From positions 1 to 64,000 of IMG/VR virus record IMGVR_UViG_3300042308_000216: 64,000 nt of DNA; one strand, given 5' to 3'. Below are positions 2,552-64,000 of the stretch, in pieces. The notes beneath the pieces were generated by a model, which was not told the DNA's origin, ran no database searches, and saw nothing but the letters and a program-made list of their open reading frames with translations. The DNA is from a virus. Positions within the stretch are counted from its first letter, which is position 1, and each line of letters opens with the position of its first letter. The position numbers and the translations under genes were made by a program.

Positions 2552-2842
2552 ATGATTATAGATCCTAAGTGTGGATCAAATACAGTAGTGTTTGTTCACA
2601 AAGAATTTGATGCAGTAATAGAAAAACTAGGTGTATACACAGAACTTGCTAAGAAATTTATTAAAAGGAATAAAAGGTATCAGTATATCAAACATGTGGA
2701 GAAACTTCCTGACGGAAAATGGGTCTTGGTTTTTAAAGTACTGCCATCTAATCATGAATCTATTAAGGAATATAATAGGATTGTAGAAGGTAGTAAGAGA
2801 GAACTCTGGATTAATTACTTAAACCACTTTATAATAGGATGA
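2552..2842 (+). CDS. hypothetical protein
   Basis: 96-aa ORF; TATTTTTG at 2527-2534 upstream. Confidence 0.65.
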   Translation: MIIDPKCGSNTVVFVHKEFDAVIEKLGVYTELAKKFIKRNKRYQYIKHVEKLPDGKWVLVFKVLPSNHESIKEYNRIVEGSKRELWINYLNHFIIG

Positions 2843-3162
2843 TAATCAAAGCTCTTGAACAAACTTTTACTATTAAAGATTCTAAAGACGAGAATGGAGA
2901 ACCCATCACTCTTGAGATTCCAGGAAAGTTTATAGTCAAGAGAGTTGAGATTCATGAAGTAATGGAGTTCTCAGAAATTATTAATGAGAGAACTAATAAA
3001 CCATACAAAACTAGATGCCTACTTAGGACTATAGATGGTTGGTTACCTGTTAAACATTCTTTTGAACAGTTAATGGAAATGAAGAATACACCACAAAGAG
3101 TAATAATACGAGGATTATATGCTGCAGCAAGAGGTAGTAAAAGTACTAACAGAAATAAGTAA
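2839..3162 (+). CDS. hypothetical protein
   Basis: 107-aa ORF with ATGA overlap. Confidence 0.65.
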   Translation: MIIKALEQTFTIKDSKDENGEPITLEIPGKFIVKRVEIHEVMEFSEIINERTNKPYKTRCLLRTIDGWLPVKHSFEQLMEMKNTPQRVIIRGLYAAARGSKSTNRNK

Positions 3163-49000: not shown

Positions 49001-52000
49001 ACTGATTTACAAACTTTAATTAATATTAGAGCTGCTGTTACAAATGAATTTCAAGATATTAAACTTAGTTCTAAAAGTAATGGTAAACTAAACCAGTTAC
49101 CAATGTTCTATAGATTATCAGAACTTATTGATGAGAATGTAGAGTTTGCTATTGCAACATCATCTATTCAATTAAACACTAGTAAAGTAACACCTGTTGA
49201 AAATTTAGCTAATACTAAAGGCTACAAAGTAGGTCAGGTATATGCATTAACTGTTATGCCTGATGGTAGAAAGTTAGCTGTACCTGTAAAGACAACTAAG
49301 ATTAAAGAAAACCCACAAGTACTTACAGAGTTAATGTCTGCTTTAGATATTTTCTTAAAAGGAGGTAATAGAGAAGACTTACAAGCTGTTTTTGGTAAAT
49401 ACTTACATTCAGTATTTAGTAAAGATAAACTAACACCAGATGGTAATTCTTTTCAAGAAGACCCTAATGGTAATGATAGATTCTATATTGACTTTACTTC
49501 AACAAATGTTAAAGGTATTATATTTGGAAAAGCAGGATTTTCTAAAAACTTTATTAGTGGTGATACACCTATAGATGCTTTAGAAGGATTAAAAAAAGAG
49601 TTAGCTTCTATTATTCAAGAGAGTTATATCAATCTTAATTTTCAAAGCTTAAAAGACCCTGATTTTGTAAAAACATATGTAACAAGTAATGTTAGATTTT
49701 ATCCATTACCTAATGGTAAGGTAACTGTGTTTGATAATCCAGTACTTGGATTTGACCCATCTACATTAATAAATGCTACAGCACCTGCTGCTAAAGTAAC
49801 ACCACAACCTATTGTTACACCTACAACACAAAGTTCTGAATCTGTCTTTAATATAACTATTGAACAGATAAAAAACAATATAGCAGAATTAAGAGCTAAA
49901 GAACAAGCAGAGTATGCTGCTATTGATCCTAATGATACAGCAGCAAGAAAAAAGATTTATGAAGACTATAATAAATTAATTACTACTTTAATAAATGAAG
50001 CAGAAGCTGATATAGAAAAAAGAAAAGAAGCAGAGTTAGAATTAGAATCTGAAAGAATTGTAGAAAGTACTGAAATTTGGAAAGATGAAGAAGGTCGTTT
50101 ATTTAGAATTGATAAACTAAAAAACGGTAAACAAAGATTAGCCGCTACAGATGAAGAAGGTAAACTGCTTAGTGTAATAGATATCTATGAAGGTTCTGTA
50201 TCTCCTACTAAGTTTATAGCAGATGGAGAAAAAGTAAAAGACCAAGAAGTAAAAGAAAATAAGATAGTAGATAAAATTAATGCTAAATATAAAGAAGAAC
50301 TAGATGCTGTAAAACAAGTTAAACCTACTACTACACCTATTTCTGATATAGAAACTAAAAAAGCAGATATAGAAACTGCTTTTGATTATATAACTACTCG
50401 TAAATATAAAGGTGAAAATAATAGATTAAATGAAATAAATAAAATTGGAGAAGATCTTGCTAAACGCTTTGTAGCTACTCTTAAAGAAAAAGGTTTAGTT
50501 AAAGAAGACTACAGAATGGCTCCTAGAACTGATGGGTCTGTAGAAAAAATGAAAGTAAATACAGATGATAAAGGTAATAATTTAGGAAATGATTGGAGTA
50601 CTGCTGGTAAATTTAAAGATGAGTTTAGAAAATTTGTTAATGTAGAATTAGCTTCTTTAAAAAGTAAAGCTACTACTACACCTACAGCACAATCAACTAC
50701 AGATACTAAAGCTGAAATAGAAAAAAGATTAAAAGAAGAAATTATATCTTTAGAAAAAGATTTAAAGGCTATTAAATTTAAAGATGGAAATACACTAGGA
50801 AAAATGTTTCCTGATTGGTCAGTAGAAGCTGCTACTTTTATAAGAGAACATTTTAAAAAAGCTGTTACTGAAGAAGATTATAATAAAGCAGTAAGATATG
50901 AAAACCTAGTAAACCATTTTGATGCTGTAGTTAAAAATGAATTAAATAAATTAACACTTCAACCTACAGCTCAACCTACTGCTGCAGATATTAAAGCTGA
51001 TATAGAAAATAGAATTGTTATTACTGGAACTGACCAAGGATTTGAAGTATATAATACATCAAATATTAAAAATGAGAAAGCAGGAACTGTAGCTGATGTT
51101 AGAAGAAAGTATTCTGATGATAAATATGAAATAGAATTTGGTAAAGGAGATGATAAAAAAAGTATTTTTTCTGATATAAATTATGGTCAAAAAGAAGATT
51201 CCTATCATTATTTTATAACAGATAAAAAAACAAAGAAGAGATACTACGTAGTAGGAATTAGCAGTAGAGTTACTGGTACTGATCCCCAAAGAGATGGAAG
51301 TCTATTTGCAACTATAGAGGACGATGGTAATATTACAGATTTTACAAGAACAGTATTAGAACTTGCTCTTATAAAAGAATTTGAAAATCAAACGAAAAAA
51401 AGAAAGAATATATTTAGACCTTTACCACAAAAATTTATTGACAAAGTAAAAGCTGCAGAACAAGCTGCTTTAGGGCAAGCTCAACCTACACCTGCTACAG
51501 AAACACCAACAACTCCACAAGAAAAAGGAGAGTTTTCTATTCAAGGTACATTTCGTGGATTAACTCATGTATTAGGTGATCCTGCTAATATGATTCCTGA
51601 TCTTAGAGATACAGGATTTATTGATAAGCCAACTTTTTCTGAATCTGTTCAAAAAGGTAAAAAGTTTTTTACACTTTCTATTCCACAAGCAGATGATGTT
51701 TATAGACAAGGCTATTTATCAGTGTCTTTAGTATTTCCTGAAACAACAACTAAAACAATGGCTGATGTCAAAGCTGCTTTAGAAGCAAAAGTAGCTGAAG
51801 CTAAATCTGTTATTGCAACTGCAAGAGATAAAGGATCTAATGCAGAAGCTTTTTTAAAAAACAAGGTTAGTGCAGAATACACAGAACAACCTTCTGTAAC
51901 AGAACCAGTACCTGTAGTTGAACAACAACCTGTACCACAACCTACAGTTGAATTAAAATCTGCTGGTGGAGCAAAGTTTAACTTGAAACTACCTAAAGAA

Positions 52001-53338
52001 GATTCAGATTTAAGTATAACTACTACAGAAGAACTAGGTGTTGAACAAGTAGCACAAGAAGTATTACCTGCTTTAGAAGATAGATTAAGAGGATTTTTAT
52101 CATCTATTAATGTAGATACATTAGTTGTAGATAATTTACAAGAAAGATTAAAAGAAAAAGGATTGAATACTGATGCTGTTGCAATATCAGATATATTACA
52201 CAAAGCAATATTCCTAGATTCAGAAAGGTATAATACTATGGATTATGCTGAAGAGGTTGCTACTTTTGCAATTGAGTTTATGGGAGCTAGTAAACATGCT
52301 GAGGCATCTCCTTTAATTAGAAAAGCACTAGACAATATATCAAGTTGGGAAAAATACCAACAATACTATGATTTATATAAGGATAATCCTATTTATAAAA
52401 ACAACGAAAGAAAATTAAAAGTTGAAATACTTAGTAAGCTATTAGCTGAAAAAATAATAGAGAATAAAGATAAAACTAAAAAAACAAAACAAGATAAAAA
52501 GCTAACAACTTTAGAAACTATTATTAATGACATACTAGCTTTGTTTGATAAAATATGGAAATCAGATTACTATAGAGCTGTTGATAGATTTTTAAAACAA
52601 AAAGGTATTCAAACTAAAGGAGTTAATAAAATTAACATTAGACCTTTTGATGCTGTAATAAATGAGATTGTAGATGATATACTATTTAATAATACATCTA
52701 AAATAATTAATAATGCTAATAGAGCTAGAAAAGGAGAAACTGCTGTTTCTTTAAAAGAAGTTTTAGAAAACAATCCTACTATAAATGAGATATATAATAA
52801 ACTAAACTCTTTAGGTTTTATGTTTACAGGTTCTCCTGCTCTTTCAAATGAAGGAACTATATACAGAGAATCTAATGATACTTTACATGATTTAGATTGG
52901 CAAGTACCAAAAGAGTTAGAAGATAATTGGTTAGACATAATAAAAGAAACTTTTCCAGAAATAGGGTATAAGATTAATGAAAAAACAAATCAAGCTCAGA
53001 TTTTTAGTAAGGGTGAAAAAACTACTCACACTTTAATGATTAAAGGAATGCCTGTTGACTTTTTTATAAGTGTTAATCCTCCATCCAATAAAAATACATT
53101 TGGAGATATGAGATGGCAGGATACCTTTGAAGCTAAGATGGATATAGGTAGAGACAAAGACATCAGAGACTTAATTGACTTTAAAACTTTATTTAATGAT
53201 TACTTTTCAAATCCTGGTTACTTATATTATTCTTTAGGTCAAGTTAAACCAGGAAAACAAATTGAAAAATATGTATCTTTGCAAGATAAGGTTAACACCC
53301 TTATAGAAGAAGGTAAAGCAACTAAATTTTGTAAGTAA
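46073..53338 (+). CDS. giant polyvalent cargo protein: membrane-inserting N-terminus, KADIE-bounded cassettes, degenerate zincin, C-terminal nucleotidyltransferase
   Basis: 2421 aa; Gly-rich hydrophobic helices; repeats at 49870-51530; GS (52829) + DLD (52889) + RDKD. Confidence 0.75.
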   Translation: MPGENLGTTTIAIPLQKIKPYKPTSTTQAVPETYAGPQSRYDDNYFIDQSKMNSEFFQSMRAENQGFGMELATAGANLIPNIALSIGETAGYLFDVEDWSNMIQGNKTDYGNAITKWASDNKNPFGQVYTKSTDGGFDMSDSAWWVSNGGGLVESLVAFGITGFGVGSVLGKSASMLSKTLGAYGKTKFAIEGAAKLGTSLSLAYSEGAMTGAQVFKDVYDDTYNFEYLKNVNAGMGDKEAKARAHYTATDVAGEGATKAVRTNTLINTFLNIPETNVLFRSMGASRYIDDALKLQKGEFARDAVERIKKFDVNKHLTRQGIEHWGKETGSEMLEEMVNVYAEESGKNVGRLATGQDIVSLGDMLANDDIWAAGFWGAIGGSMNGFVMGKMPKWVVQEDGTKKRTTVGAYNKEQVKDKYKEQLTDLQDRLTEFVDARDALDIAAKSGDERAYKEAADKVFSYNSFNSIVKGTEEQLLNDFQEIAAFTPEQAAQQGFASDYKERATEKIQSVRQNTAEWNKIQDRHSSQDLDQAGFPETIFQQHMNVQNNKKIIQDNTIELAKLESEIAQAHVLRGTDLTTTSFNDVKSSIDAVEHAFEMAAKDLSDIDSLSTLDSKTRQKKIAELSNKYGNIENAKIQIQKHLEELEEKREDLFNNLEIQKENFYSFIDPENTMSDDEKLDRYKNIIAQNSSDIYSLTEGKKVLETNRKILASQIEELRVLKSDKGLERFKALKKEKMAERDALDAQAAAKARAEAEAKAKAAKVEEIKVKKKEAPETVTPQEEEIIQANTPVESFEEGVYSGEGSNKEGLEEQYKEITKIADNSDEEGKVKDSSGQTISVGDKLMYGSNKLAYASTVEYIVEDDKIKHTSLKLNPETNPDLLTDKYVPGTKLKIKKLTPEEFKSHEFFAPDNIKFIDEVGREILVANKGQKVTFEMLSHPYMQPIGIYNEAGEYQAMLHAVTYINDNRVVSENVETDLQTLINIRAAVTNEFQDIKLSSKSNGKLNQLPMFYRLSELIDENVEFAIATSSIQLNTSKVTPVENLANTKGYKVGQVYALTVMPDGRKLAVPVKTTKIKENPQVLTELMSALDIFLKGGNREDLQAVFGKYLHSVFSKDKLTPDGNSFQEDPNGNDRFYIDFTSTNVKGIIFGKAGFSKNFISGDTPIDALEGLKKELASIIQESYINLNFQSLKDPDFVKTYVTSNVRFYPLPNGKVTVFDNPVLGFDPSTLINATAPAAKVTPQPIVTPTTQSSESVFNITIEQIKNNIAELRAKEQAEYAAIDPNDTAARKKIYEDYNKLITTLINEAEADIEKRKEAELELESERIVESTEIWKDEEGRLFRIDKLKNGKQRLAATDEEGKLLSVIDIYEGSVSPTKFIADGEKVKDQEVKENKIVDKINAKYKEELDAVKQVKPTTTPISDIETKKADIETAFDYITTRKYKGENNRLNEINKIGEDLAKRFVATLKEKGLVKEDYRMAPRTDGSVEKMKVNTDDKGNNLGNDWSTAGKFKDEFRKFVNVELASLKSKATTTPTAQSTTDTKAEIEKRLKEEIISLEKDLKAIKFKDGNTLGKMFPDWSVEAATFIREHFKKAVTEEDYNKAVRYENLVNHFDAVVKNELNKLTLQPTAQPTAADIKADIENRIVITGTDQGFEVYNTSNIKNEKAGTVADVRRKYSDDKYEIEFGKGDDKKSIFSDINYGQKEDSYHYFITDKKTKKRYYVVGISSRVTGTDPQRDGSLFATIEDDGNITDFTRTVLELALIKEFENQTKKRKNIFRPLPQKFIDKVKAAEQAALGQAQPTPATETPTTPQEKGEFSIQGTFRGLTHVLGDPANMIPDLRDTGFIDKPTFSESVQKGKKFFTLSIPQADDVYRQGYLSVSLVFPETTTKTMADVKAALEAKVAEAKSVIATARDKGSNAEAFLKNKVSAEYTEQPSVTEPVPVVEQQPVPQPTVELKSAGGAKFNLKLPKEDSDLSITTTEELGVEQVAQEVLPALEDRLRGFLSSINVDTLVVDNLQERLKEKGLNTDAVAISDILHKAIFLDSERYNTMDYAEEVATFAIEFMGASKHAEASPLIRKALDNISSWEKYQQYYDLYKDNPIYKNNERKLKVEILSKLLAEKIIENKDKTKKTKQDKKLTTLETIINDILALFDKIWKSDYYRAVDRFLKQKGIQTKGVNKINIRPFDAVINEIVDDILFNNTSKIINNANRARKGETAVSLKEVLENNPTINEIYNKLNSLGFMFTGSPALSNEGTIYRESNDTLHDLDWQVPKELEDNWLDIIKETFPEIGYKINEKTNQAQIFSKGEKTTHTLMIKGMPVDFFISVNPPSNKNTFGDMRWQDTFEAKMDIGRDKDIRDLIDFKTLFNDYFSNPGYLYYSLGQVKPGKQIEKYVSLQDKVNTLIEEGKATKFCK
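53274..53281 (+). promoter_or_regulatory. TAnnTTTG -7 element upstream of the RNA polymerase gene
   Basis: TATCTTTG 56 nt before ATG 53338. Confidence 0.4.
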
Positions 53339-56300
53339 TGAGTAATTGTCAAACGACTTTCCAGGATAGAACTATCCCTTCTGGGGATTTTGAATTTCAA
53401 ATAGCATCTAACCAAATTGATTTATCACCAACAGACAAGTCTGATTTAGATACAATGTCTTTACTGACATTAGACTTATCAACAATACCTTTACTATCTC
53501 CTGATAAGATTAACTCTGCTCAACAAGAGGAGATGATTAATTGGTTAACAGGTGAAGTAATTAACTTCTCATTAAATAATGCTGTTAAAGGTGTTGATGA
53601 AAAAGAGTTAATAAATAATGCTTTTAACGATGCATCAGAGCTTCTTAAAAGCGGTGCTTTACAAGCTGTAGAATTAGGTATACCAATATTAGAAGAAAGA
53701 ATAAACAGTATTCTTGAGGTATATGATAAGCTAAAAGAGATTGTACAAATTAGAGTTAATAATTTTGGTATTGATTTTGAAGCTGATGCTGTTACACCAG
53801 AAGATGCTACTGAAAATTATGAAGAAGATAAAGCTTTAAAAGTAAATCCTTATACAAAAATTGGTCAGGAAATTAAAAGACAGCTTTTTACTATTTATGA
53901 TTTAGATAGTTTACAAGAGGATGGTTCTTACACAGAAGATGATGTAAAAAGAACTTGGTTTGGATTCCCTGCTTACAAATCTATTAACCAAGTATTACCC
54001 ACAATACTATCACACTCTAAAGATTTACCTGCAGAGTTTGATGTGATTAAAGCAAAGATGCTAGATAGCAAAGATGCTAATAAATGGTTTGTACCCTTAC
54101 TTGATAAATTAAGTGAGGCTGATGGACAAGTTAGAAATCAGTTTTCTAGATGGGCTAGTAAAGCACAAATCAATTTAAAGTATTTATTGTTTGATACCAA
54201 GACTAATGAGTTTCAATTTAACAATAGTAACTCAGGTAGGCAAGTAGATATCATAACTAACAAATGGAAGAATAACCTTATACAAACAGAGCTATTTAAA
54301 ATTAATCCAGACACTAATGAGTATGAGTTAGATAGAGAAAAAGCAGATGCTATAACTAAAAACTTTGAAGCATTCAGTGAAAAGTATAAAATGCTTAAAG
54401 AGAATTATCCAGAAGAGTTATTTACAGAACTGGCTGATATCTTAAAAAGTATTGGTGTTGATATTAAACCAAGAGAAATTAAAAGAATGCAAAGGTTTCT
54501 TGATACACAAGGAACCAAATGGGGGAATAGTCCAAGAGCTAAATTTAGTCAGTTCTTTGTAGCTGATAAAGGTGCAGTGGATTTTATGATTCAAAGATTA
54601 TCTAAAGCAGATAAAGAAGCTGAAGGTTCTTTTAATAAATACAATCCACTATCTAATAATACTGGTGTTAGAGCATTAACATTGTTATACTCTTATTACC
54701 AAGAAATTTCTACTAATGATTCTTACAAGAATAGTAACAATGATACTATTTATGCATATAGTCCTAAGAAATATGCAACAGACCAATTTCAAAGAATAGC
54801 TGATACAGCTTATTTAGGTAGATTAATGGAAACTCAATTTGCTAGTAACTCTACTTGGGGTAAAGCATTGATGTCTGAGGATCCTGATACAAGAGCTAGA
54901 TTTCTAGAAGTATTCACATTAGATTATTTTGATGGTGCTACAGGTAAAGGCTCTAAATTAAATACTCCATTTGACCAACTATCTGCATCTGAAAGAGAAA
55001 AGTTTTTACTGACTTGTTTTCAAAACCAAAATAGAAAAGTACAAAGTAAATACAGATATGGTTCTACTTCTTATCTAACTATGTCTGATAAGAAAACCTT
55101 AATTAGTGTTCAACATATATTAGAAGATGTTGATATTAATCCAGAAACAAATAAGCTAGGTAGTAAAAGTATTGACTTATTATATCAAGTATTTAAAGCA
55201 GAGCAGCAAAGGATTAGAGAATTTGAAGCATTAAGTGCAGAGAATAAAAAAGGTTTATCAAAAGAATATGTAAAAGGTGCAAAAGAGTATATCTTAAATC
55301 CTTGGGTTACAAAATATAAAGCTGAAGGAAAAGAACTTGACTCATCAGAAGATGTTAAAATAGCTATTGAAGAATACTATAATGATATTATAAATACTAA
55401 AATAGCTACTTGGAAAGAGGTTGGTATTATATCTACAGATAATGAAGATAATATAACTACAACTTTTGATAAAGAGTATTTTGAGAATGTTAAAAATAGT
55501 AAAGTAGGTAGTAAAGCAAATATTAATGCTGCTATTGCTTATGCTGCTATTGACTATGAAGTAAATACAATAATTGGTAACTTAAATCTATTTCAATTAT
55601 TTGCTGGTGACCCAGCTAGTTATTGGAAAAACAATGTTGATGATACATTAGTAAATGTTGGTAAACGTCTAGCAGCACAGATTGCTCCTGGAGATTCATT
55701 AGCTAATACTAGATATACAGACATTGCTGGTATTAATGGGCATAGCTATACACAAGTTATTGCTAAAGACCATAAAATGATATCATCATCTATCAAGTAT
55801 CTAACTAAGCTGCTTGATGGTAAAGAAGTTACTGATAAAGAGATTGAAGATTATAGAGCAGGTAATACTAAAGCAATAGAAGAAAAATATCCTAATGCTG
55901 CAGCTTACTTTGATATAGAAGCTACTGATGCTCAGGAATATACTACAGCATTAGAGCATGCTTACAATCTATACCATGAAGGTAAGTTATCTGATAAAGT
56001 ATATAAAGACTTAGCAAATAAATTAATTAATGATAGAGAGTTAAGTGATAGTGATGTTAAAGTGCTAATGCAACCTATGAAACCAGTTTACTTTAATGGT
56101 GATGTTAAGTCAGCAGGTACTGGTTCATTAAATTATTATGATATGTCTTACATTAAGACTTCATCATTTCCATTGTTAAAAGAATTTACAGTAGGTACTG
56201 AGCTTGACAAGTTAAGAAAACAACTAGAGAAATTACAAGACCCAACTGGTTCTAAAGACCCTAGCCAAATTAAACTTGTTAGAATGGTAATGAGTTCAGG

Positions 56301-59300
56301 TATTAAGATTGGTGCTGTGCAGAATCCTGTAACAGTATTCAATCCTGATGGAACAGTTAATCCTGATATTGACTTTACAAGCTCTACAAAGTCTTTAACT
56401 AGAGATGGATATAGAATTCAGTTAGAGGTTCCTTTAAAAGATAAGAAAGAAGTTAATAGAGGTACACAAGAGATTAAACTTTTGTTTACAGATTTACTTG
56501 ACCATAAATTTGCTAATGGTAAAACAGGACAACAGTTAAAAACTGAATACCTTGATTTAAACAGACAACTATTTAAAACTCAATTAGAGATATTTAAAAA
56601 CCAAATAGATGCAGATGAAAAAGGTGAATTTAATATTCAACTATTAAGAGATAAACTAGTAGAAGAAGCACAATCAAGAAACTTTTCACTGAATGAGATT
56701 GAGTCTTTGAGACTAGTTGATTTAGACTCTGAAGGTAAGTTTGTAATTCCATTAGTTTTTAACTCAGCATCAGATAAGTTTGAAAGCTTAATGATTTCTT
56801 TAATAGATAACTCTGTTAGAAAACAAAAGCAAACTGGTTACAGCTCTCCATTAGGTTCATCTTCTGGATTTAAATTTCAGAATGACCTTAAAAGTATAGA
56901 TAAGAGTAAAATTATTTGGGTTGAAGGTTTTGATCCATCAGGAGATTTAAAGCAACAAAGAATTGTAGATGGTAAAGTAAGAGGTTCACAAGTATTTGTA
57001 CCTTGGAAATTCAGAGATAACAATGGTAAGCTTTTAAATGCAAAAGATTTTACTAAAGAGTTGCCTGATGGTAGAATAGTAATTGATCATGATAAATTAC
57101 CAAAAGATATATTAAAGTCATTTGGATTTAGGATTCCTACACAGGGATTAAACTCAATGGCTTATATTGAGATTGCAGGATTTTTACCAGAAGAATCTGG
57201 TGACTTGTTAATTGCACCTGCTGAATTTACAAAGCAGATGGGTTCTGACTTTGACATTGATAAATTATATAGTTACTTATATACTACAGAATTTAATTAT
57301 AAAACTGGTAAACTAGAAAAGTTTGTATTTAATAATAAAGATGTATTTGAAATACTATCTAGTACTAACTCTAGTTTAGTTACTAAAGACAATAAAGATT
57401 ACAGATTAAAAACATTAATCAAAGAGTTTGGATATATTAAAGTAGCCAAATCTCTTTTCCAATTTTATAACAGTAAAATAGATACTCTTAAAAAAGAGTT
57501 AGATGATAAGTGGTCATTACATGAAGCTTTTGTAAGTAATGTACTAGACACTATTGATGTTAAAGAAGCATCATTGGATACAAATAAAACATTAATCAAT
57601 AAAGCTTTTAGAGAGAATGAAATCTATGTTGCTTTCTTGAGAGATGAGTTATCAGAGTTAAGGTCTGTAATATCTGCATTAGAGAAAAATGAATTAGATG
57701 AAGGTGTTAATGAATACCTTGTAGATAAATTTGATATCTATGTAGATGAAGTAAGAACAGAAAGTATAAATGAATTACTTAGAAAAGAGTTTGAATTAAA
57801 TAATAGATTAGAAAAATCTGTTGTAATAAAAGAAAGTCTTAAGAAGTTTAATGCTTCTATTAGTGATACTGTAAAAGTTGCTTTAGATATTAAGAATGAT
57901 ATTTTTGAGACTAAAAGAGATTTAAGAAATATATTAAAGTACACTAGTACATTACAGAATGAAATTCTAGATATGCACATCACAGTGCTATCTGACCCAT
58001 CAGATTTAGTACAGTCTAAAGTAACATCAGCATTAGGATTTGGTAAGCTAGGTGAACTTAAAAAGGTATATGATAAAGAATCTAAATCAAAAGCAGAAAG
58101 TACTAGCCCTTTATCATCAGGATACCAATCTCAGAAATATTTATCTGCAAGAGGTGGTAAAGCAGGTACAGGATACTTTAGTGCATTAAATGTATTTGTA
58201 TCTGTTATGCAGGGACTAGGATTAAAGTATAATGTATCTACTCCTGTAGATAATGGTAAATTTGCAATGATAGAGAAAAACCTAGTTATCCATAAAAAAG
58301 GTAATGGGTTGAGTAAGAATGTTGATAACATGAATAACCTTAAATCTGAGAATGCTGTAGCATACCAATCAGCAGCTGTGGATGATGAGAAAGAACAGAT
58401 TATGGCTTCTCTTAATATCACATCAGAAACATTCTATGCTATTGGTGCATGGATATTAGATGGTCATTCACAAGAAGCTATTACAGGTATTTTAACTCAG
58501 CCTATTGTTGCTGAGTATATCAATGCAATCAATAATAAAACAGATATTTTTTCAGATTTTACTAAGAATGCAGATCTTATTGTGTTTAATGAGTTGTATG
58601 AAAAGTACTCTAAGATGACAGGTCTTAGTCAAGAAATATTAAATGAAACTGATTTTAATAATACTGTATTATCAGAAGATGTTTTATGGAATTCTTACAA
58701 AGCTACTACTAAAGATGCTAATTGGGCTATGACTCAATTAACTGCTCTACATAAATTTAGAGAAGCTGATGTTATGGGTAAAAGCATACAAAAAACCATC
58801 AGTGCATTTAGTGTGGATTCTAAAGGATTAGGTAAATCTTTTATAGAAGTTGGTTTAAAGTTAGATGATATTAAAACTGAAAGAGAAAGTGGTAAAATTA
58901 CTAACATAGAAAAACTACTTAATCAATCTGTAGGTGGATTAGCTGTGCAATATTCTTTAGAAACAGTTCACCAACTATTTAGTAAGTTCTACCCATACTT
59001 AATTCCTGAAAGTTATAACAAAGTTACTTTTGATGAGTATTTACAAGTTACATTTAAAGATAATCTTTCAGCAGAGCAAAGAGAAAAAGAGTTTAGAGAT
59101 TTCTATAACCACATGAAAGCTGGTGTGTATGCAAATATGCTTCAGCAACCTGGTGTAGATTTATATACTAGAAGAAAAGAGTTAATGTATGGTGAAAATT
59201 CATTAGGTAAAAGAGTACAAGAACTGCAAAAAACTACTAAGAACCCATTTTTAATTAAACTTACTCCTAATGTAGCTACTATTGTAGGAGATCCTGATAC

Positions 59301-62300
59301 AGTAAGTATGAGGTCTATTGGTGGTGAGTTATTTAATGAAGATGATTTATATGTTGGCTTTTTAGATTTATTTAATAAACCTGAAAACAGACAGTTAGCT
59401 AAAGACTTAGTTGATTACTTCTATATTAATGGTGGTAGTCAGAAAGCTAGAGAGTTTTCTAAATATATTCCAACTGGGTTTATGGTTGCTAGTGGTTATG
59501 CAGATAGTTTAAGAAGTGCTAACTTATTTAACCTATCAAATATTCTAGGTTCACCTCAAATGTTTTTACAGAACTACATCAGAAACAATCCTAGTAAAGC
59601 ACCTCAACTTAATAGAGGAGATTATACTATGAGTCCTGATGGTAAAGTCACTGTTACTAGTGACCAATTTACATATGTACCTAAAAATGGTGTTGATGTT
59701 GGTGTTAGTACAGCAATACCTTATGTTTCAATACCAGAAGTAAAAGTAAATCCAGATGATAGTATTAAAGTAACTATAAGACTTTACATGTATGATGACC
59801 AAGGTAGTTATGTAGAAATTCCTAGATTGGGATTTACAACATCAAACTATTCAGGTACAGAGTATGGTAGTAGATATTCTGCTATAGATTCTAATGCTGT
59901 AAAACAAAGAGTTCAAAATCCTAATACAGTGCAAGAACCTGTTAGGCAAGAAGCTAGTTCAGATCCTGTTATTCCAAATAGTATTAAAGTAGCTGCTAAT
60001 GACTTTGAAGCACTAAACATTAATAAGGTTAATAACAAAGAAGATGTTAAAGTAACACTATCTATTATTAATAACAGTACATCAAAAGCATTATTAGACT
60101 TACTTGATAAAATAGGTAGCTTAACTTTAGAAGCTACTCCAGGTAATTCTTCATATAAAGCAGGTAGAATTACAATAGATAGTAGAATTAAAGATCCATC
60201 TGTACTACAAACTAAAGTATTGCATGAAGTTACACATGCTGTAACATCTGAAATAATTAATAAAATACTATTAAACCCTAATAACCCTAACTTTGAAGGA
60301 TTATCTGAATCTCAAAAGTTAGCTTACATGAGGTTAAATAAAACATTTACTACATTAAGACAATCTGTAATTGATGGTAGAGTACCTGGATTAAACAAAG
60401 AAGGATTAGAATTATTTGAAGCTAAAATAGATGCCCTTAAAAAAGGTCAAAAAGGAATTGACTTTACACCAGATGATGTTGAGTATAATCCATATTTAAA
60501 TCTTAAAGAATTTTTAGCAGAAGCATTTTCTAATACTACTTTTCAAAAGCAATTAGATGCTATGAAATTTACTGAAGACAGATCAATGCTTCAGAAGTTG
60601 TTAGAAGATATTGCAAACTTCTTAAATAAATTTGTAGCTGACTACAATAAAGATAATGTACTTGCTTCTGTACTATATGATGGGTTTACACTAGCTGGTG
60701 GTAATGAAGTAAATATTTATTTTAAATCTGGTGAAAATAGAATACTATCTAATTTAAATTTAAATTCTTTTACAGGTAAAGATGGTAAAAGATATGCTTC
60801 TGTAGAACATGCATACCAATCTTGGAAATCAGGATCATTTGATGAATCAACATATACATCTCCTAATTGGGTATTTAATGGTGGAGATAATTATAAAGTA
60901 TCTGGTAATAAAGGTACTAAAACAGAAAACAATTGGAATCTAGATTTAATGAAAGGTCTTATTAGACAATCATTAGATCAAAACCCAAATGCTAAACAAG
61001 CATTACTTAATACAGGAGATAAAATACTTACTCATAACCAAGATAATACTATTTGGAAAAATGCTTTTCCTCAGATATTAATGGAATTAAGAAAAGAGTA
61101 TTATGATGCAGGATTATCTGGTGTTAACAATCCAAGTGATTATGTTAATCACTCTGGTGGTGCTGTAGGTTCTGATGAATCTTGGGATATTATAGGTAGA
61201 CAATTTGGTGTAACACAGCATAAGCATTACAGAGAACCAGGTGCATTAAAGCTAGACTCAGCTGAACTTGATAGTAGAGGTATTAAACCTGTAAATGTAT
61301 CTGAAGCTTTATACAATGAAGGTATTCAAAAATCTACTAGAGCAGCTCAACAAATGTATGGGTTAAAAGGTCAGATAAAAATGAATTACATTATTCGTAA
61401 TTGGGCACAAGTTAAAAATGCTGACTCTATATATGCAATAGGTGTAATTCTTAAACCTGGTAATAGACTTAATACAAAAGATGATAGAATAGCTTTAGTA
61501 CCACAAGTAAAAGGAGGTACAGGATATGCAGTACAGATGGCTATTAATGAAGGTAAGCCTGTATATGTATATGATGGCACAAAGAATGGGTGGTTTAAAT
61601 ATGATTACAATATAAAAGATTTTGTACCTACAAGTATACCAACACTTACTAAAAACTTTGCTGGTATAGGCTCAAGAAAATCTCAAGATTGGAATAAAGA
61701 TTTACAAGCTATTAGAGATGTTTATGCTAATACTTTTAAAGTACAGCAAGATACTTCTACAAATACTGGAGGTAATCCAAAAGGAGAGAAAATTGCTGAT
61801 GGTATGTATGTAAACCAACAAGGACTATCTCCACAAGAAGAACTTGAATTATTTGAACTTGTTAGACCAATTTTAGAGCAACAAGCTGTAAAAAGTAATA
61901 AAGGTAAATCAGCTCCTAAAATGGCTGGATTAAATTTAAATTGGGATTATGTAAGTAATAGAAGAGGGCAACAGACAAGAATAAATGTTGGAGAAACATT
62001 AAAACCTAATGATACTTATGGTTGGTTTACACAATCTGCTAATGGTCAAGAGTTATATCCAATTACTGGTAGAATGATAGAGTTAATGAGTAAAGCTACT
62101 GGTATAGATGTTAGTAATTATGATGGTTCTATTATAAATATATATGATTCTAATAGTTTTATTGGTAACCATCCTGATATTGATGAAAGTAAGACAGCAG
62201 AAAAATATCCTGTTGTTGTTGTTAATATAGGAGGTCCAGGAAATATTGTATTAGGTAATAAAAAAGTTGATTTAAATTCAGGAGCAGGTTATGTATTTGG

Positions 62301-64000
62301 ATTTGAAGGTAAAAATAGAACTATACCTCATTCTACTTATGCAGCACCTATTAAAGGTACATTACCATCTATAACAACAAGTATGGATGGTGAGACATTA
62401 GCAGCTGGTTCTTATAGAGTTTCAATTACTATGAGAAGAGTTATGCCTTTAGAGCAAGGTATGCCTAGTAAACCAAATACAGTTAATACCATATCTAAAA
62501 CTCAACCTGTTGAAACTAGTACTGAAGAAATTCAACAAAACTTAGCTGAACCTACACCTCAACCTCAGAAGAGTACATTTACATATAAAAATAAAACTAT
62601 AGAAACTGAGTTTAAACTAACAAATGGTCAAGTAAATGCAATAGAAAGACTTACTGATTTTGCATTAGGTAACACTAAAACAATTACATTGCAAGGAGCT
62701 GCTGGTACAGGTAAAACATCTGTTATAGGTTACTTACAAAAGTTCCTAGGTGACAACTATAACTTTATTTATATGGCACCTACACATGCAGCAACTGCTG
62801 AGTTAGCAACTGCTACAGTTAAGTCAGGTAATAGAGATTTACCTATGACTGTACAATCTGCATTTAATAAAAGACAGAATCAAGATACTGGTGAGTGGGA
62901 ATATGGTACTACTAAAAAGTTAAATAATAAATTAGAGTATACAGATAATATTATTGTAATAGATGAAGTATCTATGTTAGCTGATAAAGACTACAACATA
63001 ATACTAGATGCTATTAAAAAGAAACAGATTCAAGTTATCTTTATGGGTGACATACTTCAGATACCTGAAGTTGATACTAATAATCCAGAAAGAAAAAGTG
63101 TATCAAAAGCATTTTCTGCTAATGAGCAAGTATTACTTACTGAAGTAAAAAGAACTGATGATAATGATATACTTACAATCTTAACAGAACTTAGAAACAA
63201 CCCAACAAGTTTAATACCAGTAATACCAAATAGTAATAGATTACAGTATTTAGACCAAGGAGAGTTTGATAATCAAATAGTAGAAACTATTAGAATAGAA
63301 CCTGAAGAAACTGTACTACTTAGCTATACAAATAATGGTGTTAAAGACAGTAATAGAAAATTAAGAAGAGCATTAGGTAGAGTTGGTAATCTACAAGAAA
63401 ATGATATTATAGTTGGTTTTTCAGGTTACAAGTCTAAGCAAATTGAAAAAGGAAACATTGCTAATAGTGTTAGATACACTGTAGAAAATGTTGAAAAAGA
63501 TGGTAGTAATTATATTATAACAGCAAAATCTCAAAAGCTAAAGGCTTTAGAAGATTTAGGTGTAAAGAATGTAAATGAATATGCAGTAGGTACATACAAA
63601 CAATTATCAGCAAATGATTCTTTAGTATTTGAAGACCTTACTAATGAAGACCTTGAAAAAAACAATAGAGATGTTTCAGAAATATTAAAACTAGTTTATG
63701 ATACTAAGCAAGCTGCTGTAGCTAGAAGAATTAGATGGAATGTATATGATGCTGCTTTAGCTAAAGCATCTATGTATTTTGAAAATGTTAATTTAGGTAG
63801 TGACTATGTTTATAATCCAAATACAAATAGAATGGAGTTATACAACTATATAGTTCATGGTGACATACTTAAAAACTTTGCAGAGTTAAAAGTAGAAAAA
63901 GGTATTGACTATGGTCATGCTATTACTATACATAAATCTCAAGGTAGTACAATCAAGAATGTATTTTTTGATGCTAGTACTTTACCTCAAGGAACATCTT
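53338..64000 (+). CDS. virion-packaged RNA polymerase polyprotein (over 3550 aa, truncated by window end) fused to zincin, NADAR, cpSLOG, AlkB and SF1B helicase domains
   Basis: ATG 53338 (TAATG overlap); ATDAQEY 55921, RIPTQG 57130, catalytic GSDFDIDK 57241-57264; HEVTH 60223; SVEHAYQ ~60800; HSGGAVGSD 61150; HPD 62170; GAAGTGKT 62695; all in the same frame. Confidence 0.92.
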   Translation, partial: MSNCQTTFQDRTIPSGDFEFQIASNQIDLSPTDKSDLDTMSLLTLDLSTIPLLSPDKINSAQQEEMINWLTGEVINFSLNNAVKGVDEKELINNAFNDASELLKSGALQAVELGIPILEERINSILEVYDKLKEIVQIRVNNFGIDFEADAVTPEDATENYEEDKALKVNPYTKIGQEIKRQLFTIYDLDSLQEDGSYTEDDVKRTWFGFPAYKSINQVLPTILSHSKDLPAEFDVIKAKMLDSKDANKWFVPLLDKLSEADGQVRNQFSRWASKAQINLKYLLFDTKTNEFQFNNSNSGRQVDIITNKWKNNLIQTELFKINPDTNEYELDREKADAITKNFEAFSEKYKMLKENYPEELFTELADILKSIGVDIKPREIKRMQRFLDTQGTKWGNSPRAKFSQFFVADKGAVDFMIQRLSKADKEAEGSFNKYNPLSNNTGVRALTLLYSYYQEISTNDSYKNSNNDTIYAYSPKKYATDQFQRIADTAYLGRLMETQFASNSTWGKALMSEDPDTRARFLEVFTLDYFDGATGKGSKLNTPFDQLSASEREKFLLTCFQNQNRKVQSKYRYGSTSYLTMSDKKTLISVQHILEDVDINPETNKLGSKSIDLLYQVFKAEQQRIREFEALSAENKKGLSKEYVKGAKEYILNPWVTKYKAEGKELDSSEDVKIAIEEYYNDIINTKIATWKEVGIISTDNEDNITTTFDKEYFENVKNSKVGSKANINAAIAYAAIDYEVNTIIGNLNLFQLFAGDPASYWKNNVDDTLVNVGKRLAAQIAPGDSLANTRYTDIAGINGHSYTQVIAKDHKMISSSIKYLTKLLDGKEVTDKEIEDYRAGNTKAIEEKYPNAAAYFDIEATDAQEYTTALEHAYNLYHEGKLSDKVYKDLANKLINDRELSDSDVKVLMQPMKPVYFNGDVKSAGTGSLNYYDMSYIKTSSFPLLKEFTVGTELDKLRKQLEKLQDPTGSKDPSQIKLVRMVMSSGIKIGAVQNPVTVFNPDGTVNPDIDFTSSTKSLTRDGYRIQLEVPLKDKKEVNRGTQEIKLLFTDLLDHKFANGKTGQQLKTEYLDLNRQLFKTQLEIFKNQIDADEKGEFNIQLLRDKLVEEAQSRNFSLNEIESLRLVDLDSEGKFVIPLVFNSASDKFESLMISLIDNSVRKQKQTGYSSPLGSSSGFKFQNDLKSIDKSKIIWVEGFDPSGDLKQQRIVDGKVRGSQVFVPWKFRDNNGKLLNAKDFTKELPDGRIVIDHDKLPKDILKSFGFRIPTQGLNSMAYIEIAGFLPEESGDLLIAPAEFTKQMGSDFDIDKLYSYLYTTEFNYKTGKLEKFVFNNKDVFEILSSTNSSLVTKDNKDYRLKTLIKEFGYIKVAKSLFQFYNSKIDTLKKELDDKWSLHEAFVSNVLDTIDVKEASLDTNKTLINKAFRENEIYVAFLRDELSELRSVISALEKNELDEGVNEYLVDKFDIYVDEVRTESINELLRKEFELNNRLEKSVVIKESLKKFNASISDTVKVALDIKNDIFETKRDLRNILKYTSTLQNEILDMHITVLSDPSDLVQSKVTSALGFGKLGELKKVYDKESKSKAESTSPLSSGYQSQKYLSARGGKAGTGYFSALNVFVSVMQGLGLKYNVSTPVDNGKFAMIEKNLVIHKKGNGLSKNVDNMNNLKSENAVAYQSAAVDDEKEQIMASLNITSETFYAIGAWILDGHSQEAITGILTQPIVAEYINAINNKTDIFSDFTKNADLIVFNELYEKYSKMTGLSQEILNETDFNNTVLSEDVLWNSYKATTKDANWAMTQLTALHKFREADVMGKSIQKTISAFSVDSKGLGKSFIEVGLKLDDIKTERESGKITNIEKLLNQSVGGLAVQYSLETVHQLFSKFYPYLIPESYNKVTFDEYLQVTFKDNLSAEQREKEFRDFYNHMKAGVYANMLQQPGVDLYTRRKELMYGENSLGKRVQELQKTTKNPFLIKLTPNVATIVGDPDTVSMRSIGGELFNEDDLYVGFLDLFNKPENRQLAKDLVDYFYINGGSQKAREFSKYIPTGFMVASGYADSLRSANLFNLSNILGSPQMFLQNYIRNNPSKAPQLNRGDYTMSPDGKVTVTSDQFTYVPKNGVDVGVSTAIPYVSIPEVKVNPDDSIKVTIRLYMYDDQGSYVEIPRLGFTTSNYSGTEYGSRYSAIDSNAVKQRVQNPNTVQEPVRQEASSDPVIPNSIKVAANDFEALNINKVNNKEDVKVTLSIINNSTSKALLDLLDKIGSLTLEATPGNSSYKAGRITIDSRIKDPSVLQTKVLHEVTHAVTSEIINKILLNPNNPNFEGLSESQKLAYMRLNKTFTTLRQSVIDGRVPGLNKEGLELFEAKIDALKKGQKGIDFTPDDVEYNPYLNLKEFLAEAFSNTTFQKQLDAMKFTEDRSMLQKLLEDIANFLNKFVADYNKDNVLASVLYDGFTLAGGNEVNIYFKSGENRILSNLNLNSFTGKDGKRYASVEHAYQSWKSGSFDESTYTSPNWVFNGGDNYKVSGNKGTKTENNWNLDLMKGLIRQSLDQNPNAKQALLNTGDKILTHNQDNTIWKNAFPQILMELRKEYYDAGLSGVNNPSDYVNHSGGAVGSDESWDIIGRQFGVTQHKHYREPGALKLDSAELDSRGIKPVNVSEALYNEGIQKSTRAAQQMYGLKGQIKMNYIIRNWAQVKNADSIYAIGVILKPGNRLNTKDDRIALVPQVKGGTGYAVQMAINEGKPVYVYDGTKNGWFKYDYNIKDFVPTSIPTLTKNFAGIGSRKSQDWNKDLQAIRDVYANTFKVQQDTSTNTGGNPKGEKIADGMYVNQQGLSPQEELELFELVRPILEQQAVKSNKGKSAPKMAGLNLNWDYVSNRRGQQTRINVGETLKPNDTYGWFTQSANGQELYPITGRMIELMSKATGIDVSNYDGSIINIYDSNSFIGNHPDIDESKTAEKYPVVVVNIGGPGNIVLGNKKVDLNSGAGYVFGFEGKNRTIPHSTYAAPIKGTLPSITTSMDGETLAAGSYRVSITMRRVMPLEQGMPSKPNTVNTISKTQPVETSTEEIQQNLAEPTPQPQKSTFTYKNKTIETEFKLTNGQVNAIERLTDFALGNTKTITLQGAAGTGKTSVIGYLQKFLGDNYNFIYMAPTHAATAELATATVKSGNRDLPMTVQSAFNKRQNQDTGEWEYGTTKKLNNKLEYTDNIIVIDEVSMLADKDYNIILDAIKKKQIQVIFMGDILQIPEVDTNNPERKSVSKAFSANEQVLLTEVKRTDDNDILTILTELRNNPTSLIPVIPNSNRLQYLDQGEFDNQIVETIRIEPEETVLLSYTNNGVKDSNRKLRRALGRVGNLQENDIIVGFSGYKSKQIEKGNIANSVRYTVENVEKDGSNYIITAKSQKLKALEDLGVKNVNEYAVGTYKQLSANDSLVFEDLTNEDLEKNNRDVSEILKLVYDTKQAAVARRIRWNVYDAALAKASMYFENVNLGSDYVYNPNTNRMELYNYIVHGDILKNFAELKVEKGIDYGHAITIHKSQGSTIKNVFFDASTLPQGTS

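Follow-up and report, generated by a model that had tools for sequence, protein, structure and literature searches.

The window analyzed here comprises the first 64,000 nt of a 95,877-b IMG/VR record from a genome that is crAss-like by its TerL, portal, and MCP PHROGs, all three of which lie upstream of the gene described below. TerL is ~32% identical to its counterparts in crAss-like phages and matches those only. Within a co-directional block of giant genes, we found an open reading frame that starts at position 53338, where it overlaps the stop of an upstream 2,421-aa gene, and that is still open at the edge of the window (53338..63999 within it). Translation of the full record places the end of the frame at 64284, 284 b past the 64,000-nt window, where it overlaps the start of a downstream 1,287-aa gene by 8 b. 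The 94 further codons beyond position 64000 include one for a conserved C-terminal cysteine, so the gene is incomplete within the window. Profile searches gave no family match for the upstream 2,421-aa protein. The features, in record numbering, are as follows:

46073 to 53338, plus strand: upstream cargo-type protein of 2,421 aa, whose single cysteine is its penultimate residue
53338 to 64284, plus strand: giant open reading frame, a single frame of 3,648 codons
53347 to 53349, plus strand: Cys4, paired with Cys2420, the penultimate residue of the upstream protein (nt 53330 to 53332)
55351 to 57324, plus strand: two-barrel virion RNA polymerase core (aa 672 to 1329), by homology to phi14:2 gp66 and PDB 6VR4
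57247 to 57261, plus strand: catalytic DFDID motif (D1304, D1306, D1308), whose G, D, D, and D are invariant in 26 giants
60001 to 60699, plus strand: zincin-like metallopeptidase domain (aa ~2222 to 2454), with H2296, E2297, H2300, and E2391
60709 to 61107, plus strand: NADAR domain of the phage type (aa 2458 to 2590), with LSN at 2470, EHAYQ at 2490, and L-T-H at 2564 to 2566
61123 to 61749, plus strand: cpYpsA-like SLOG domain (aa 2596 to 2804), with the Gly-rich loop HSGGAVGSD
61810 to 62451, plus strand: AlkB-type Fe(II)/2-oxoglutarate dioxygenase (aa 2825 to 3038), with H2945, D2947, H2998, R3027, and R3033
62509 to 64098 (last part beyond the window), plus strand: Dda/RecD-type SF1B helicase (aa 3058 to 3587), with all motifs present

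A first-pass annotation of the window had read an RNA polymerase followed in the same frame by zincin, NADAR, SLOG, AlkB, and helicase domains, and each of these six calls was verified independently. Its borders agree with those we re-derived to ~20 aa, and the motifs it quoted lie where it had placed them (GSDFDIDK at aa 1302, nt 57241; HEVTH at aa 2296, nt 60223; EFLAE at aa 2391, nt 60508). One finding it had named as fatal, an in-frame stop between the polymerase and the other domains, is absent: the extended record encodes a 3,648-aa protein without interruption. An alternative genetic code is unneeded, as the frame is open under table 11. Because the contig is a fragment of an uncultured viral genome, estimated to be 59% complete, we considered whether separate genes had been fused through chimerism in the metagenomic assembly or through a frameshift in sequencing. 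Chimeric assembly is unlikely because relatives from independent samples (83–92% identity) have identical junctions and because base composition is uniform across the region. Given also the 3,648 stop-free codons and over 100 analogous fusions elsewhere, we regard an artefact as negligibly probable.

The polymerase body occupies approximately aa 1–2200. Its core matches 6vr4_A over aa 672–1329 (E 8.2e-26), and the polymerase matches phrog_16227 (3.5e-64). On the strength of this homology, the DFDxD motif, and the position of the gene in the block of giant genes, we assign it as a crAss-type (gp66-like) virion RNA polymerase. In Cellulophaga phage phi14:2, gp66 is packaged in the virion by experiment (MS-based annotation; Drobysheva preprint) and transcribes ssDNA but not dsDNA (Drobysheva preprint); QDE-1, a eukaryotic relative of gp66, depends on the helicase QDE-3. 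The gp67-gp66-gp65 proteins of phi14:2 share with the present locus the homologous polymerase core with its DFDxD motif, a block of giant virion genes, an associated zincin with HExxH, and cysteines confined to the protein ends. Unlike the present giant, the 2,180-aa gp66 lacks NADAR, SLOG, AlkB, and helicase domains, and the zincin of phi14:2 is at the N-terminus of gp65 (HExxH at aa 245), whereas here it is fused C-terminally to the polymerase. Among deposited phages, the closest match is the 4,287-aa "structural protein" of Flavobacterium phage FpV4/Fpv3, which is 25% identical over aa 122–2430 (polymerase and zincin), contains LLHEVIHTVT, has a homologous downstream gene (the counterpart of our 1,287-aa gene), and shows the terminal-cysteine pattern. 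In contrast to the present protein, it ends ~220 aa after HExxH without the ~1,200-aa region that follows here, and the upstream cargo protein is fused at its N-terminus. The polymerase giant would likewise be present in the virion and delivered to the host, to which its suppression of cysteine and its gp66-like terminal-cysteine pattern are indirect pointers.

The assignment of the zincin draws on conserved residues and structure. Across 19 sequences, some as little as 23% identical, H2296, E2297, H2300, and E2391 do not vary. The predicted model (pLDDT 76.8) has strands at 64–82, a helix at 88–111 that carries HExxH, and a helix at 190–199 that carries the glutamate. A structure search with this model (VIA-align) returned almost exclusively zincins in the top rows, with Z only 7.3 at best (8vb2 Z 7.3, anthrax LF Z 7.1, then PPEP and aminopeptidase N); N4 gp50 was a weak match. 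As a single sequence, the segment found one close relative only in the locus scan, it gave no match by tblastn against deposited phages, and Foldseek searches of PDB with the zincin and SLOG models gave no row at E <= 0.001. Because a homologous zincin forms the C-terminal end of the FpV4 giant, which has none of the following modules, and the N-terminus of phi14:2 gp65, we conclude from these occurrences that the zincin is not tied to the modules. It is a predicted peptidase, and it might take part in processing, for instance by setting the individual enzymes free, as the first-pass annotation proposed.

Beyond the zincin, the NADAR domain scores under the curated cut-off of PF08719 (E 1.3e-5, 25.9 bits; cut-off 35.1), matches phrog_1017 (4.6e-12), and is 33% identical to a crAss-like "DUF1768" gene; homologous giants carry PF08719 in precomputed annotation. 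Its LSN, EHAYQ, and L-T-H motifs are conserved in 25 sequences. At the position equivalent to the catalytic E125 of YbiA, an equivalence taken from motif context rather than superposition, it has a histidine, and phage NADARs are known from published work to have His in place of the catalytic Glu. Phage NADARs tested to date all strip the guanine-ADP-ribose made by DarT1 and rescue phages. Guanine de-ADP-ribosylation is the activity expected of the fused NADAR.

The SLOG segment, which matches "DprA-like" phage genes, belongs to a family of at least 310 clusters in which H10, S11, G12, G13, A14, G16, and D18 are nearly invariant and G131, G132, and T133 are invariant. Sequence searches at the fold level were weak: Pfam cpYpsA matched 4 of 50 family members (best E 0.0065), the Pfam SLOG models gave no match at threshold, a family profile gave no significant match to PDB sequences, and a single-sequence locus scan with the segment gave no match. 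The predicted model (pLDDT 94.5) aligned to 3imk with Z 13.1 over 146 of 158 residues (VIA-align), and the next tier consisted entirely of SLOG proteins (DprA 7.3, 7.2, and 7.0; TM1055 6.7; YpsA 6.5; MCP 6.3; LOG 5.0). The alignment to 3imk, which we take to represent Pfam cpYpsA, runs end to end, but in canonical SLOGs it begins only at residue ~30–54; this is in keeping with the first-pass reading of this domain as circularly permuted. The family has no characterized member, and its SLOG domains may only bind a ligand.

The AlkB segment also scores under its curated cut-off (PF13532, E 1.1e-6, 29.5 bits; cut-off 31.2). A profile of 16 relatives matched only AlkB-family chains in PDB (5xeg 2.9e-9, E. 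coli AlkB 0.02, ALKBH2 0.06). The HxD...H iron triad and the RxxxxxR 2-oxoglutarate motif are intact, and the five key residues are conserved in 34 sequences. Family knowledge points to alkyl lesions as the putative substrates of AlkB and to DarT adducts as those of NADAR. The helicase carries its full motif set, Walker A and Walker B included, with GAAGTGKT at 3120, DEVSM at 3209, GDILQ at 3237, HKSQG at 3532, and VALSRA at 3574, and with matches above the cut-offs of AAA_30 (1.4e-20, 74.3 bits; cut-off 27) and UvrD_C_2 (27.5 bits; cut-off 27.4), as well as to phrog_325 (4.6e-63) and Dda (3upu). It is followed by a 61-aa tail that ends in FKVKCNG, the cysteine of which (Cys3646) is encoded at record nt 64273–64275.

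To our first-pass annotation no description of this exact architecture was known. That held for the order of modules, which a survey of the domain strings of related polymerases showed to be unique among 165 giant relatives, but not for the rarity it implied, as subsets of these modules recur in more than 100 metagenomic crAss-type polymerases, with more than 40 arrangements in 110 giants. By this survey the exact order is unique and the theme of module-carrying crAss-type polymerases is common. Five other giants have all four modules (NADAR, SLOG, AlkB, and helicase), arranged in four further orders; in one relative (P0041) the order of AlkB and SLOG is reversed. Each of the two nearest relatives is missing a single module: P0002 (83–86% identical) lacks only aa ~2840–3048 (AlkB), and P0003 (92%/75% identical) lacks only aa ~2599–2830 (SLOG). 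In relatives, NADAR can be present without SLOG and vice versa, and helicase, NADAR, and SLOG have free-standing homologues in other crAss-like phages. In a sample selected by the polymerase core (the best 80 of at least 558 IMG/VR polymerase loci), we counted the helicase in 15 loci, NADAR in 10, SLOG in 6, and AlkB of the present type in none; this rarity indicates that the modules are accessory and not required for polymerase function. The tail with its conserved C-terminal cysteine always comes after the modules, from which we conclude that they are inserted within the cargo protein rather than added at its end. Together, these comparisons identify NADAR, SLOG, AlkB, and helicase as exchangeable cassettes between the zincin and the conserved Cys-bearing tail.

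The 3,648-aa protein contains only three cysteines (aa 4, 560, and 3646). Among relatives, the fused modules are similarly depleted, with no cysteine in 3,110 residues of zincin, 3,385 of NADAR, 7,939 of SLOG, and 8,394 of AlkB, and 12 in 43,654 of helicase. Free-standing SLOG homologues have 1.18% cysteine compared to 0 in fused ones (Fisher p 1.5e-35). Suppression of cysteine is a hallmark of ejected N4-type proteins, the vRNAP included (PMC11445570). Because the fused modules are as purged of cysteine as the polymerase, co-ejection of the cassettes gains indirect support, although the purge could reflect a constraint other than ejection. The same purge bears on a different account, in which the C-terminal ~1,200 residues are not ejected but are detached within the cell that makes the phage, the zincin being one candidate for the cut, to serve as late replication and repair enzymes, the fusion being a co-expression device. 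The zincin is placed exactly between polymerase and cassettes, polyvalent proteins have been proposed to be processed by such peptidases (PMC5512222), and free-standing homologues of helicase, NADAR, and SLOG would fit such use. Those homologues, however, lack the cargo-specific purge that the cassettes carry, the Cys tail indicates insertion inside a cargo protein, and the same zincin occurs in cassette-free giants. We consider cleavage in the producing cell very improbable.

We weigh the functions of the cassettes mainly within an ejected protein. With six verified domains, several unrelated enzymes, a zincin at its hub, and homology that ties it to the virion, the giant resembles the polyvalent proteins of phages and conjugative elements, including N4 gp50 (PMC5512222), which are giant, virion-delivered, multi-enzyme proteins with a zincin MPTase hub and are predicted to provide early counter-defence and a jump-start of transcription; N4 gp50 is also depleted of cysteine. 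It differs from N4 gp50 in having a two-barrel rather than a T7-like fold, and N4-type proteins have no paired terminal cysteines. The polyvalent-protein paper (PMC5512222) contains no occurrence of NADAR, SLOG, or AlkB. We think it probable that a divergent crAss-like phage here packages a polyvalent protein in its virions and ejects it as a polymerase with a helicase and template-repair cassettes acting in cis. The giant would be packed in the capsid and ejected, partly unfolded, alongside other cargo proteins, and its first ~2,200 residues would transcribe the early genes. In the cell, the helicase would open the incoming duplex and so provide the single-stranded template that this class of polymerase needs. 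NADAR (guanine de-ADP-ribosylation), SLOG (binding or processing of ADP-ribose-type nucleotides), and AlkB (oxidative dealkylation) could then act in cis, so that the template stays readable ahead of any phage gene expression. The case for action in cis on the template is that ssDNA is the substrate both of DarT-type ADP-ribosyltransferases and of N1-A/N3-C alkylation. The first-pass suggestion of a co-injected first-aid kit may be apt.

A variant agrees that the protein is ejected but has NADAR and SLOG break down or sequester small immune signals or toxins derived from ADP-ribose (cyclic ADP-ribose variants, TIR/sirtuin systems), with AlkB and helicase separately serving transcription or replication. 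Iyer et al. 2022 (PMC9503650) argued that phage NADAR and SLOG domains are for the most part directed at soluble signals derived from ADP-ribose and not at DNA adducts, and described recurrent SLOG-NADAR fusions; NADAR adjoins SLOG in the giant, and small NADAR+SLOG proteins exist (P0113, P0211). Against this variant, each domain occurs without the other in relatives, every phage NADAR tested to date acts on guanine-ADP-ribose in DNA, and a polymerase–helicase tether suits a template-bound substrate better than a diffusible one. We judge this variant unlikely. Less credible still is that the cassettes act on RNA, with AlkB demethylating nascent transcripts, NADAR and SLOG processing NAD-capped or ADP-ribosylated RNA ends, and the helicase stripping RNA–DNA hybrids. 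Replicase polyproteins of some plant RNA viruses do contain AlkB and helicase domains, and AlkB-family enzymes are generally known to accept RNA. The modules lie downstream of an RNA polymerase, and NADAR has been tied to RNA-repair contexts (Iyer 2022, PMC9503650). The helicase is nevertheless of the Dda/RecD DNA-helicase type, the substrates known for phage NADARs are DNA, and the sequence itself bears no direct sign of RNA as a substrate.

Ejected template repair would set this protein apart from known phage counter-defence. T4 AdfN/gp30.3, Bas32, and Bas60, together with DarG1, belong to the NADAR family, and the His at the catalytic Glu/Asp position is typical of the phage members, but those phage proteins are small, free-standing, and expressed after infection, whereas here a domain of predicted activity lies inside a polymerase that is probably packaged. 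Likewise, viral YpsA-clade SLOGs, SLOG-NADAR-Macro fusions (PMC9503650), and 3imk (a "putative molybdenum carrier protein") share the SLOG Rossmannoid fold and Gly-rich loop and, in the fusions, the adjoining NADAR, but the viral NADAR and SLOG exemplars of PMC9503650 are typically standalone rather than embedded in a polymerase. Among the papers we searched, none joined Crassvirales with RNA polymerase and NADAR. Should the kit enter the cell together with the polymerase, its counter-defence enzymes would be active before any phage gene is expressed, a window beyond the reach of anti-defence genes that depend on expression. The combination suggests a logic in which the helicase makes the ssDNA template, and the lesions to which ssDNA is prone are undone by the other modules. 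Because related phages shuffle the same modules, the kit looks like a pre-loaded, exchangeable counter-defence set, and the cassette slot may be a natural catalogue of activities useful at DNA entry that could hint at host defences not yet discovered. From sequence alone, the cysteine purge would offer a simple way to tell the ejected domains of crAss-like giants from the others.

Consecutive cargo proteins also show paired terminal cysteines. At cargo gene junctions, one protein has a cysteine in its last few residues and the next has one at position 2–6; these are nearly the sole cysteines across several thousand residues, and the pair is lost where two genes are fused. The gp66 preprint and the crAss001 atlas both make no mention of cargo cysteines. 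In phi14:2, gp67-gp66-gp65 follow the pattern without exception, with Cys1797–Cys3 and Cys2179–Cys3 as the candidate pairs, which suggests head-to-tail thiol links. We tentatively raise the possibility, which we hold to be somewhat doubtful, that the giant is one link in a thiol-linked cargo chain, a redox-cleavable polyprotein in which disulfides in the particle would order ejection and reduction in the cytoplasm would free the proteins without a protease. The Cys-purged cassettes would ride inside such a chain and then guard the ssDNA template opened by the fused helicase. If the paired cysteines are real links, they would explain the ordered exit of several megadaltons of cargo from the capsid.

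The viral record measures 95,877 b, of which the window takes the first 64,000. The frame open from position 53338 to the last base of the window in the ORF listing closes at record position 64284; read with the standard bacterial code, it has no internal stop and encodes 3,648 residues. Beyond the window this frame runs on uninterrupted, so the domains that the first-pass annotation had placed in one frame with the polymerase are indeed joined to it, and translation recovered the motifs at the positions assigned to them. The gene overlaps both neighboring genes, the stop of the upstream one at its start and the first 8 b of the downstream one at its end, and G+C is flat at ~30% across the region. 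The features discussed below are as follows.

Features of the polymerase giant and its neighbors
46073-53338 (window): upstream giant, 2,421 aa
53338 (window) to 64284 (record): polymerase giant, 3,648 aa
60001-60699 (window): zincin
61123-61749 (window): SLOG (free-standing relatives, proteins P0112-P0231)
61810-62451 (window): AlkB (relatives, proteins P0232-P0376)
62509-64000 (window): helicase
64277-68140 (record): downstream giant, 1,287 aa

The window opens with the large terminase, portal, and major capsid protein (PHROG matches with E 1e-85 to 1e-126), and the terminase matches crAss-like phages only (~32% identity). Genes are co-directional up to record position 68140, after which a leftward block follows, and the co-directional run ends in giant genes of 1,599, 1,636, 611, 2,421, 3,648, and 1,287 aa. 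This gene arrangement is the crAss-like layout with a "transcription gene block" (Yutin et al. 2021, PMC7886860). Neither flanking giant had a Pfam or PHROG match; the 1,287-aa protein is homologous to the product of the gene after the giant of Flavobacterium phage FpV4 (22% identity, E 5e-11).

Profile, motif, and structure searches bore out every domain call in the string. Residues 672-1329 match the structure of gp66, the virion RNA polymerase of Cellulophaga phage phi14:2 (6vr4, E 8.2e-26), and the catalytic DFDID lies at 1304-1308, with the Gly and three Asp invariant across 26 distant giants. Among deposited phages, FpV4 and its relatives provide the best match, a "structural protein" of 4,287 aa; the FpV4 giant is 25% identical over residues 122-2430, which comprise the polymerase and zincin. 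The zincin segment aligns in register with 18 whole giants, with H2296, E2297, H2300, E2391, F2392, and A2396 invariant down to 23% identity. Its AlphaFold model (pLDDT 76.8, pTM 0.73) combines a sheet of three strands with a long helix carrying the HExxH and a later one bearing the Glu, the core reported for polyvalent-protein metallopeptidases (PMC5512222). A structural search with this model returned almost exclusively zincins, with the phage PhiM1 ejectosome protein 8vb2 at Z 7.3 and anthrax lethal factor at Z 7.1, along with Pro-Pro endopeptidases, aminopeptidase N relatives, SprT/Wss1, and ArdC. Because these Z values are middling, the zincin call rests on the fold list and the invariant ligands together. 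The best Foldseek row, a weak one, was full-length N4 gp50, a virion polymerase whose C1 subdomain carries an HExxH (PMC13434306); with PhiM1 8vb2, it hints at a peptidase-like module common to ejected proteins of unrelated podophages. Zincins are hubs of polyvalent proteins and are found fused to N4-type virion polymerases (PMC5512222). Polyproteins formed from fused cargo proteins, and a zincin domain in gp65 orthologues, have been described, with polymerase activation or peptidoglycan digestion as proposed roles for the zincin (Drobysheva preprint). In phi14:2 the zincin is on the next protein, whereas here it is on the polymerase itself, and it occurs both with and without cassettes (FpV4 has a cassette-free giant).

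The NADAR segment in isolation matches PF08719 below the curated cut-off (E 1.3e-5) and phrog_1017 at 4.6e-12; it shares 50% identity with a Bacillus phage AgentSmith gene and 33% with a "DUF1768" gene from a crAss-like phage. The LSN, EHAYQ, and L-T-H motifs are kept in 25 fused copies. Phage NADARs have a His in place of the catalytic Glu of YbiA-type NADARs (Schuller et al. 2023, PMC11543638), and the conserved His2566 fits this phage-type His, an equivalence suggested by motif context. T4 AdfN, like two unrelated phage NADARs, removes the guanine-ADP-ribose made by DarT1 and rescues phages (Johannesman et al., PMC11257639).

The family of the SLOG segment comprises at least 310 clusters; its members are free-standing proteins of ~205 aa that carry no Pfam annotation, and some of them are fused to NADAR (P0113, P0211). 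In a 50-sequence alignment, the Gly-rich loop reads HSGGAxGxD and the GGT loop is invariant. The model (pLDDT 94.5) aligns end to end with 3imk (Z 13.1), which we take to be a cpYpsA representative, and Foldseek agrees (probability 0.99). The second tier consists of SLOG members only (DprA, TM1055, YpsA, ShosA, MCP, and LOG), and weak Pfam matches of family members are to DprA, cpYpsA, and YAcAr. Thus, of the circularly permuted SLOG called in the first-pass annotation, the fold stands; the permutation is plausible, as canonical SLOGs align with the model only from their residue ~30-54 on, which is expected if this family is permuted.

The AlkB segment matches PF13532 slightly below the cut-off (E 1.1e-6) and NCBIfam AlkB models score weakly on it. 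H2945, D2947, H2998, R3027, and R3033 are kept in 34 copies. The only PDB chains matched by a profile of 16 members belong to the AlkB family (5xeg at 2.9e-9, followed by E. coli AlkB and human ALKBH2), with HxD, the distal His, and R...R in register. An exhaustive search of a 1.8-billion-protein library found ~200 clusters of this clade in total, nearly all within giants or giant fragments, and the clade appears specialized for polymerase or cargo giants. The helicase matches AAA_30 (1.4e-20), UvrD_C_2 (over its cut-off), and phrog_325, "Dda-like helicase" (4.6e-63); PDB matches include Dda (3upu), NCBIfam matches are RecD2 and RecD, and the SF1B motifs are all intact.

We conclude that the feature is real: the virion polymerase is polyvalent and crAss-type, and its complement of exchangeable cassettes, whose functions we infer from their families, is unusually full. 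A search scored on residues 2440-3648 and restricted to candidates of giant length returned 110 proteins of 2,000-6,200 aa, nearly all with the polymerase core, in which helicase, AlkB, NADAR, and SLOG occur in more than 40 arrangements. Among metagenomic relatives, P0002 (83-86% identity) is without exactly residues ~2840-3048, the AlkB, and P0003 (92% and 75% identity) is without ~2599-2830, the SLOG; the order of AlkB and SLOG is reversed in P0041 (55-62% identity over polymerase and zincin). The polymerases of P0041 and P0085 are 55-80% identical to that of the window protein, but their helicases, of a different clade, are only 27-28% identical, indicating that the helicase itself has been exchanged between clades. 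The FpV4 giant stops ~220 aa past its HExxH; thus, the ~1,200-aa region has been inserted, with the zincin before it and a conserved C-terminal tail after it. All four enzyme modules occur in 5 of 165 giants compared, in four other orders. In a second sample drawn by the polymerase core alone, the best 80 of at least 558 IMG/VR loci included helicase in 15, NADAR in 10, SLOG in 6, and zincin in ~45, and this AlkB clade in none. The modules are therefore accessory, and the window protein is at the module-rich extreme. A 2022 survey found viral NADAR and SLOG typically standalone, yet often virion-associated and often fused together (PMC9503650); AlkB, NADAR, and SLOG are not mentioned in the polyvalent-protein paper (PMC5512222), and our literature search found no paper joining Crassvirales, RNA polymerase, and NADAR. 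The earlier statement that this architecture is undescribed holds for the exact string, whose module order no other giant among the 165 shares; the theme itself, however, is common across metagenomes.

The window protein has 3 Cys in 3,648 residues (4, 560, and 3646); the window's other structural genes have ~0.95% Cys. Fused copies of the zincin (0 Cys in 3,110 residues), NADAR (0 in 3,385), SLOG (0 in 7,939), AlkB (0 in 8,394), and helicase (12 in 43,654) are similarly purged. Free-standing SLOG homologues (109 proteins, 40-47% identical) have 265 Cys in 22,508 residues (1.18%; Fisher p 1.5e-35 against fused SLOG). In N4-like phages, Cys suppression is a hallmark of ejected proteins, the giant polymerase included, and is attributed to passage via the oxidizing periplasm (PMC11445570); by that criterion, the cassettes are constrained in the way that ejected cargo is. 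We regard the purge as the strongest new argument for ejection of the kit. It gives indirect, independent support to the earlier proposal that the kit is co-injected.

phi14:2 gp66 transcribes efficiently when the DNA is single-stranded or denatured, but does not do so when it is duplex, and its eukaryotic relative QDE-1 requires the helicase QDE-3 and RPA (Drobysheva preprint). Both properties make the fused helicase a plausible template opener, and we postulate that this 5'-3' DNA helicase would open the template for the polymerase. The lesions reversed by AlkB arise in single-stranded DNA. Single-stranded DNA is also the substrate of the DarT toxin (PMC11543638). NADAR and AlkB, tethered to the polymerase-helicase, could clear the template in cis; for SLOG, binding or processing of an ADP-ribose-type nucleotide is a possible role.

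Most of the few remaining cysteines lie at protein ends. The single Cys of the upstream 2,421-aa protein is its penultimate residue (window 53330-53332), the giant has Cys4 (window 53347-53349) and Cys3646 (record 64273-64275), and the single Cys of the downstream 1,287-aa protein is at position 5 (record 64289-64291). The pattern is perfect in phi14:2, where the single Cys of gp67 ends the protein, the only two of gp66 are residues 3 and 2179 of 2,180, and gp65 has just Cys3, all three proteins having been found in virions by MS, and in FpV4, where the giant's single Cys is residue 4286 of 4,287 and the next protein has Cys3. Across loci L007-L086, L006, and L088, consecutive cargo proteins are marked by a Cys among the final residues of the first and another at position 2-6 of its successor. 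These pairs are almost the sole cysteines in proteins of thousands of residues: polymerase giants of the 80 IMG/VR loci have 139 Cys in 315,583 residues. A Cys lies in the last 10 residues of 61 of the 77 3'-complete giants, and it co-occurs with a Cys near the N-terminus of the protein that follows (both in 57 loci, neither in 3, mismatch in 1). The polymerase has an N-terminal Cys only where a gene of its own encodes the upstream cargo protein, and in 9 of 11 such cases that protein has a terminal Cys at its C-terminal end; the median DFDxD position is 1,369 with this Cys and 3,075 without (Mann–Whitney p 1.7e-9). Cys is the sole invariant residue in tail alignments and, with one Gly, the invariant residue of leader alignments. 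Because the pairs vanish at fused genes, the pattern suggests a putative thiol link standing in for the peptide bond between cargo proteins. Disulfides have been observed elsewhere in the crAss001 virion (PMC10172136); cargo cysteines are mentioned in neither that atlas nor the gp66 preprint, and no paper we searched describes the paired pattern. Cargo leaders downstream of the polymerase (L008-L086) recur in a handful of forms, M-A-C-x-Y-x-[FY]-x-G-K, M-x-C-S-I-I-R-N, and M-x-x-C-P-N, which may be a docking or ordering signal. The first of these also begins polymerase proteins encoded as separate genes.
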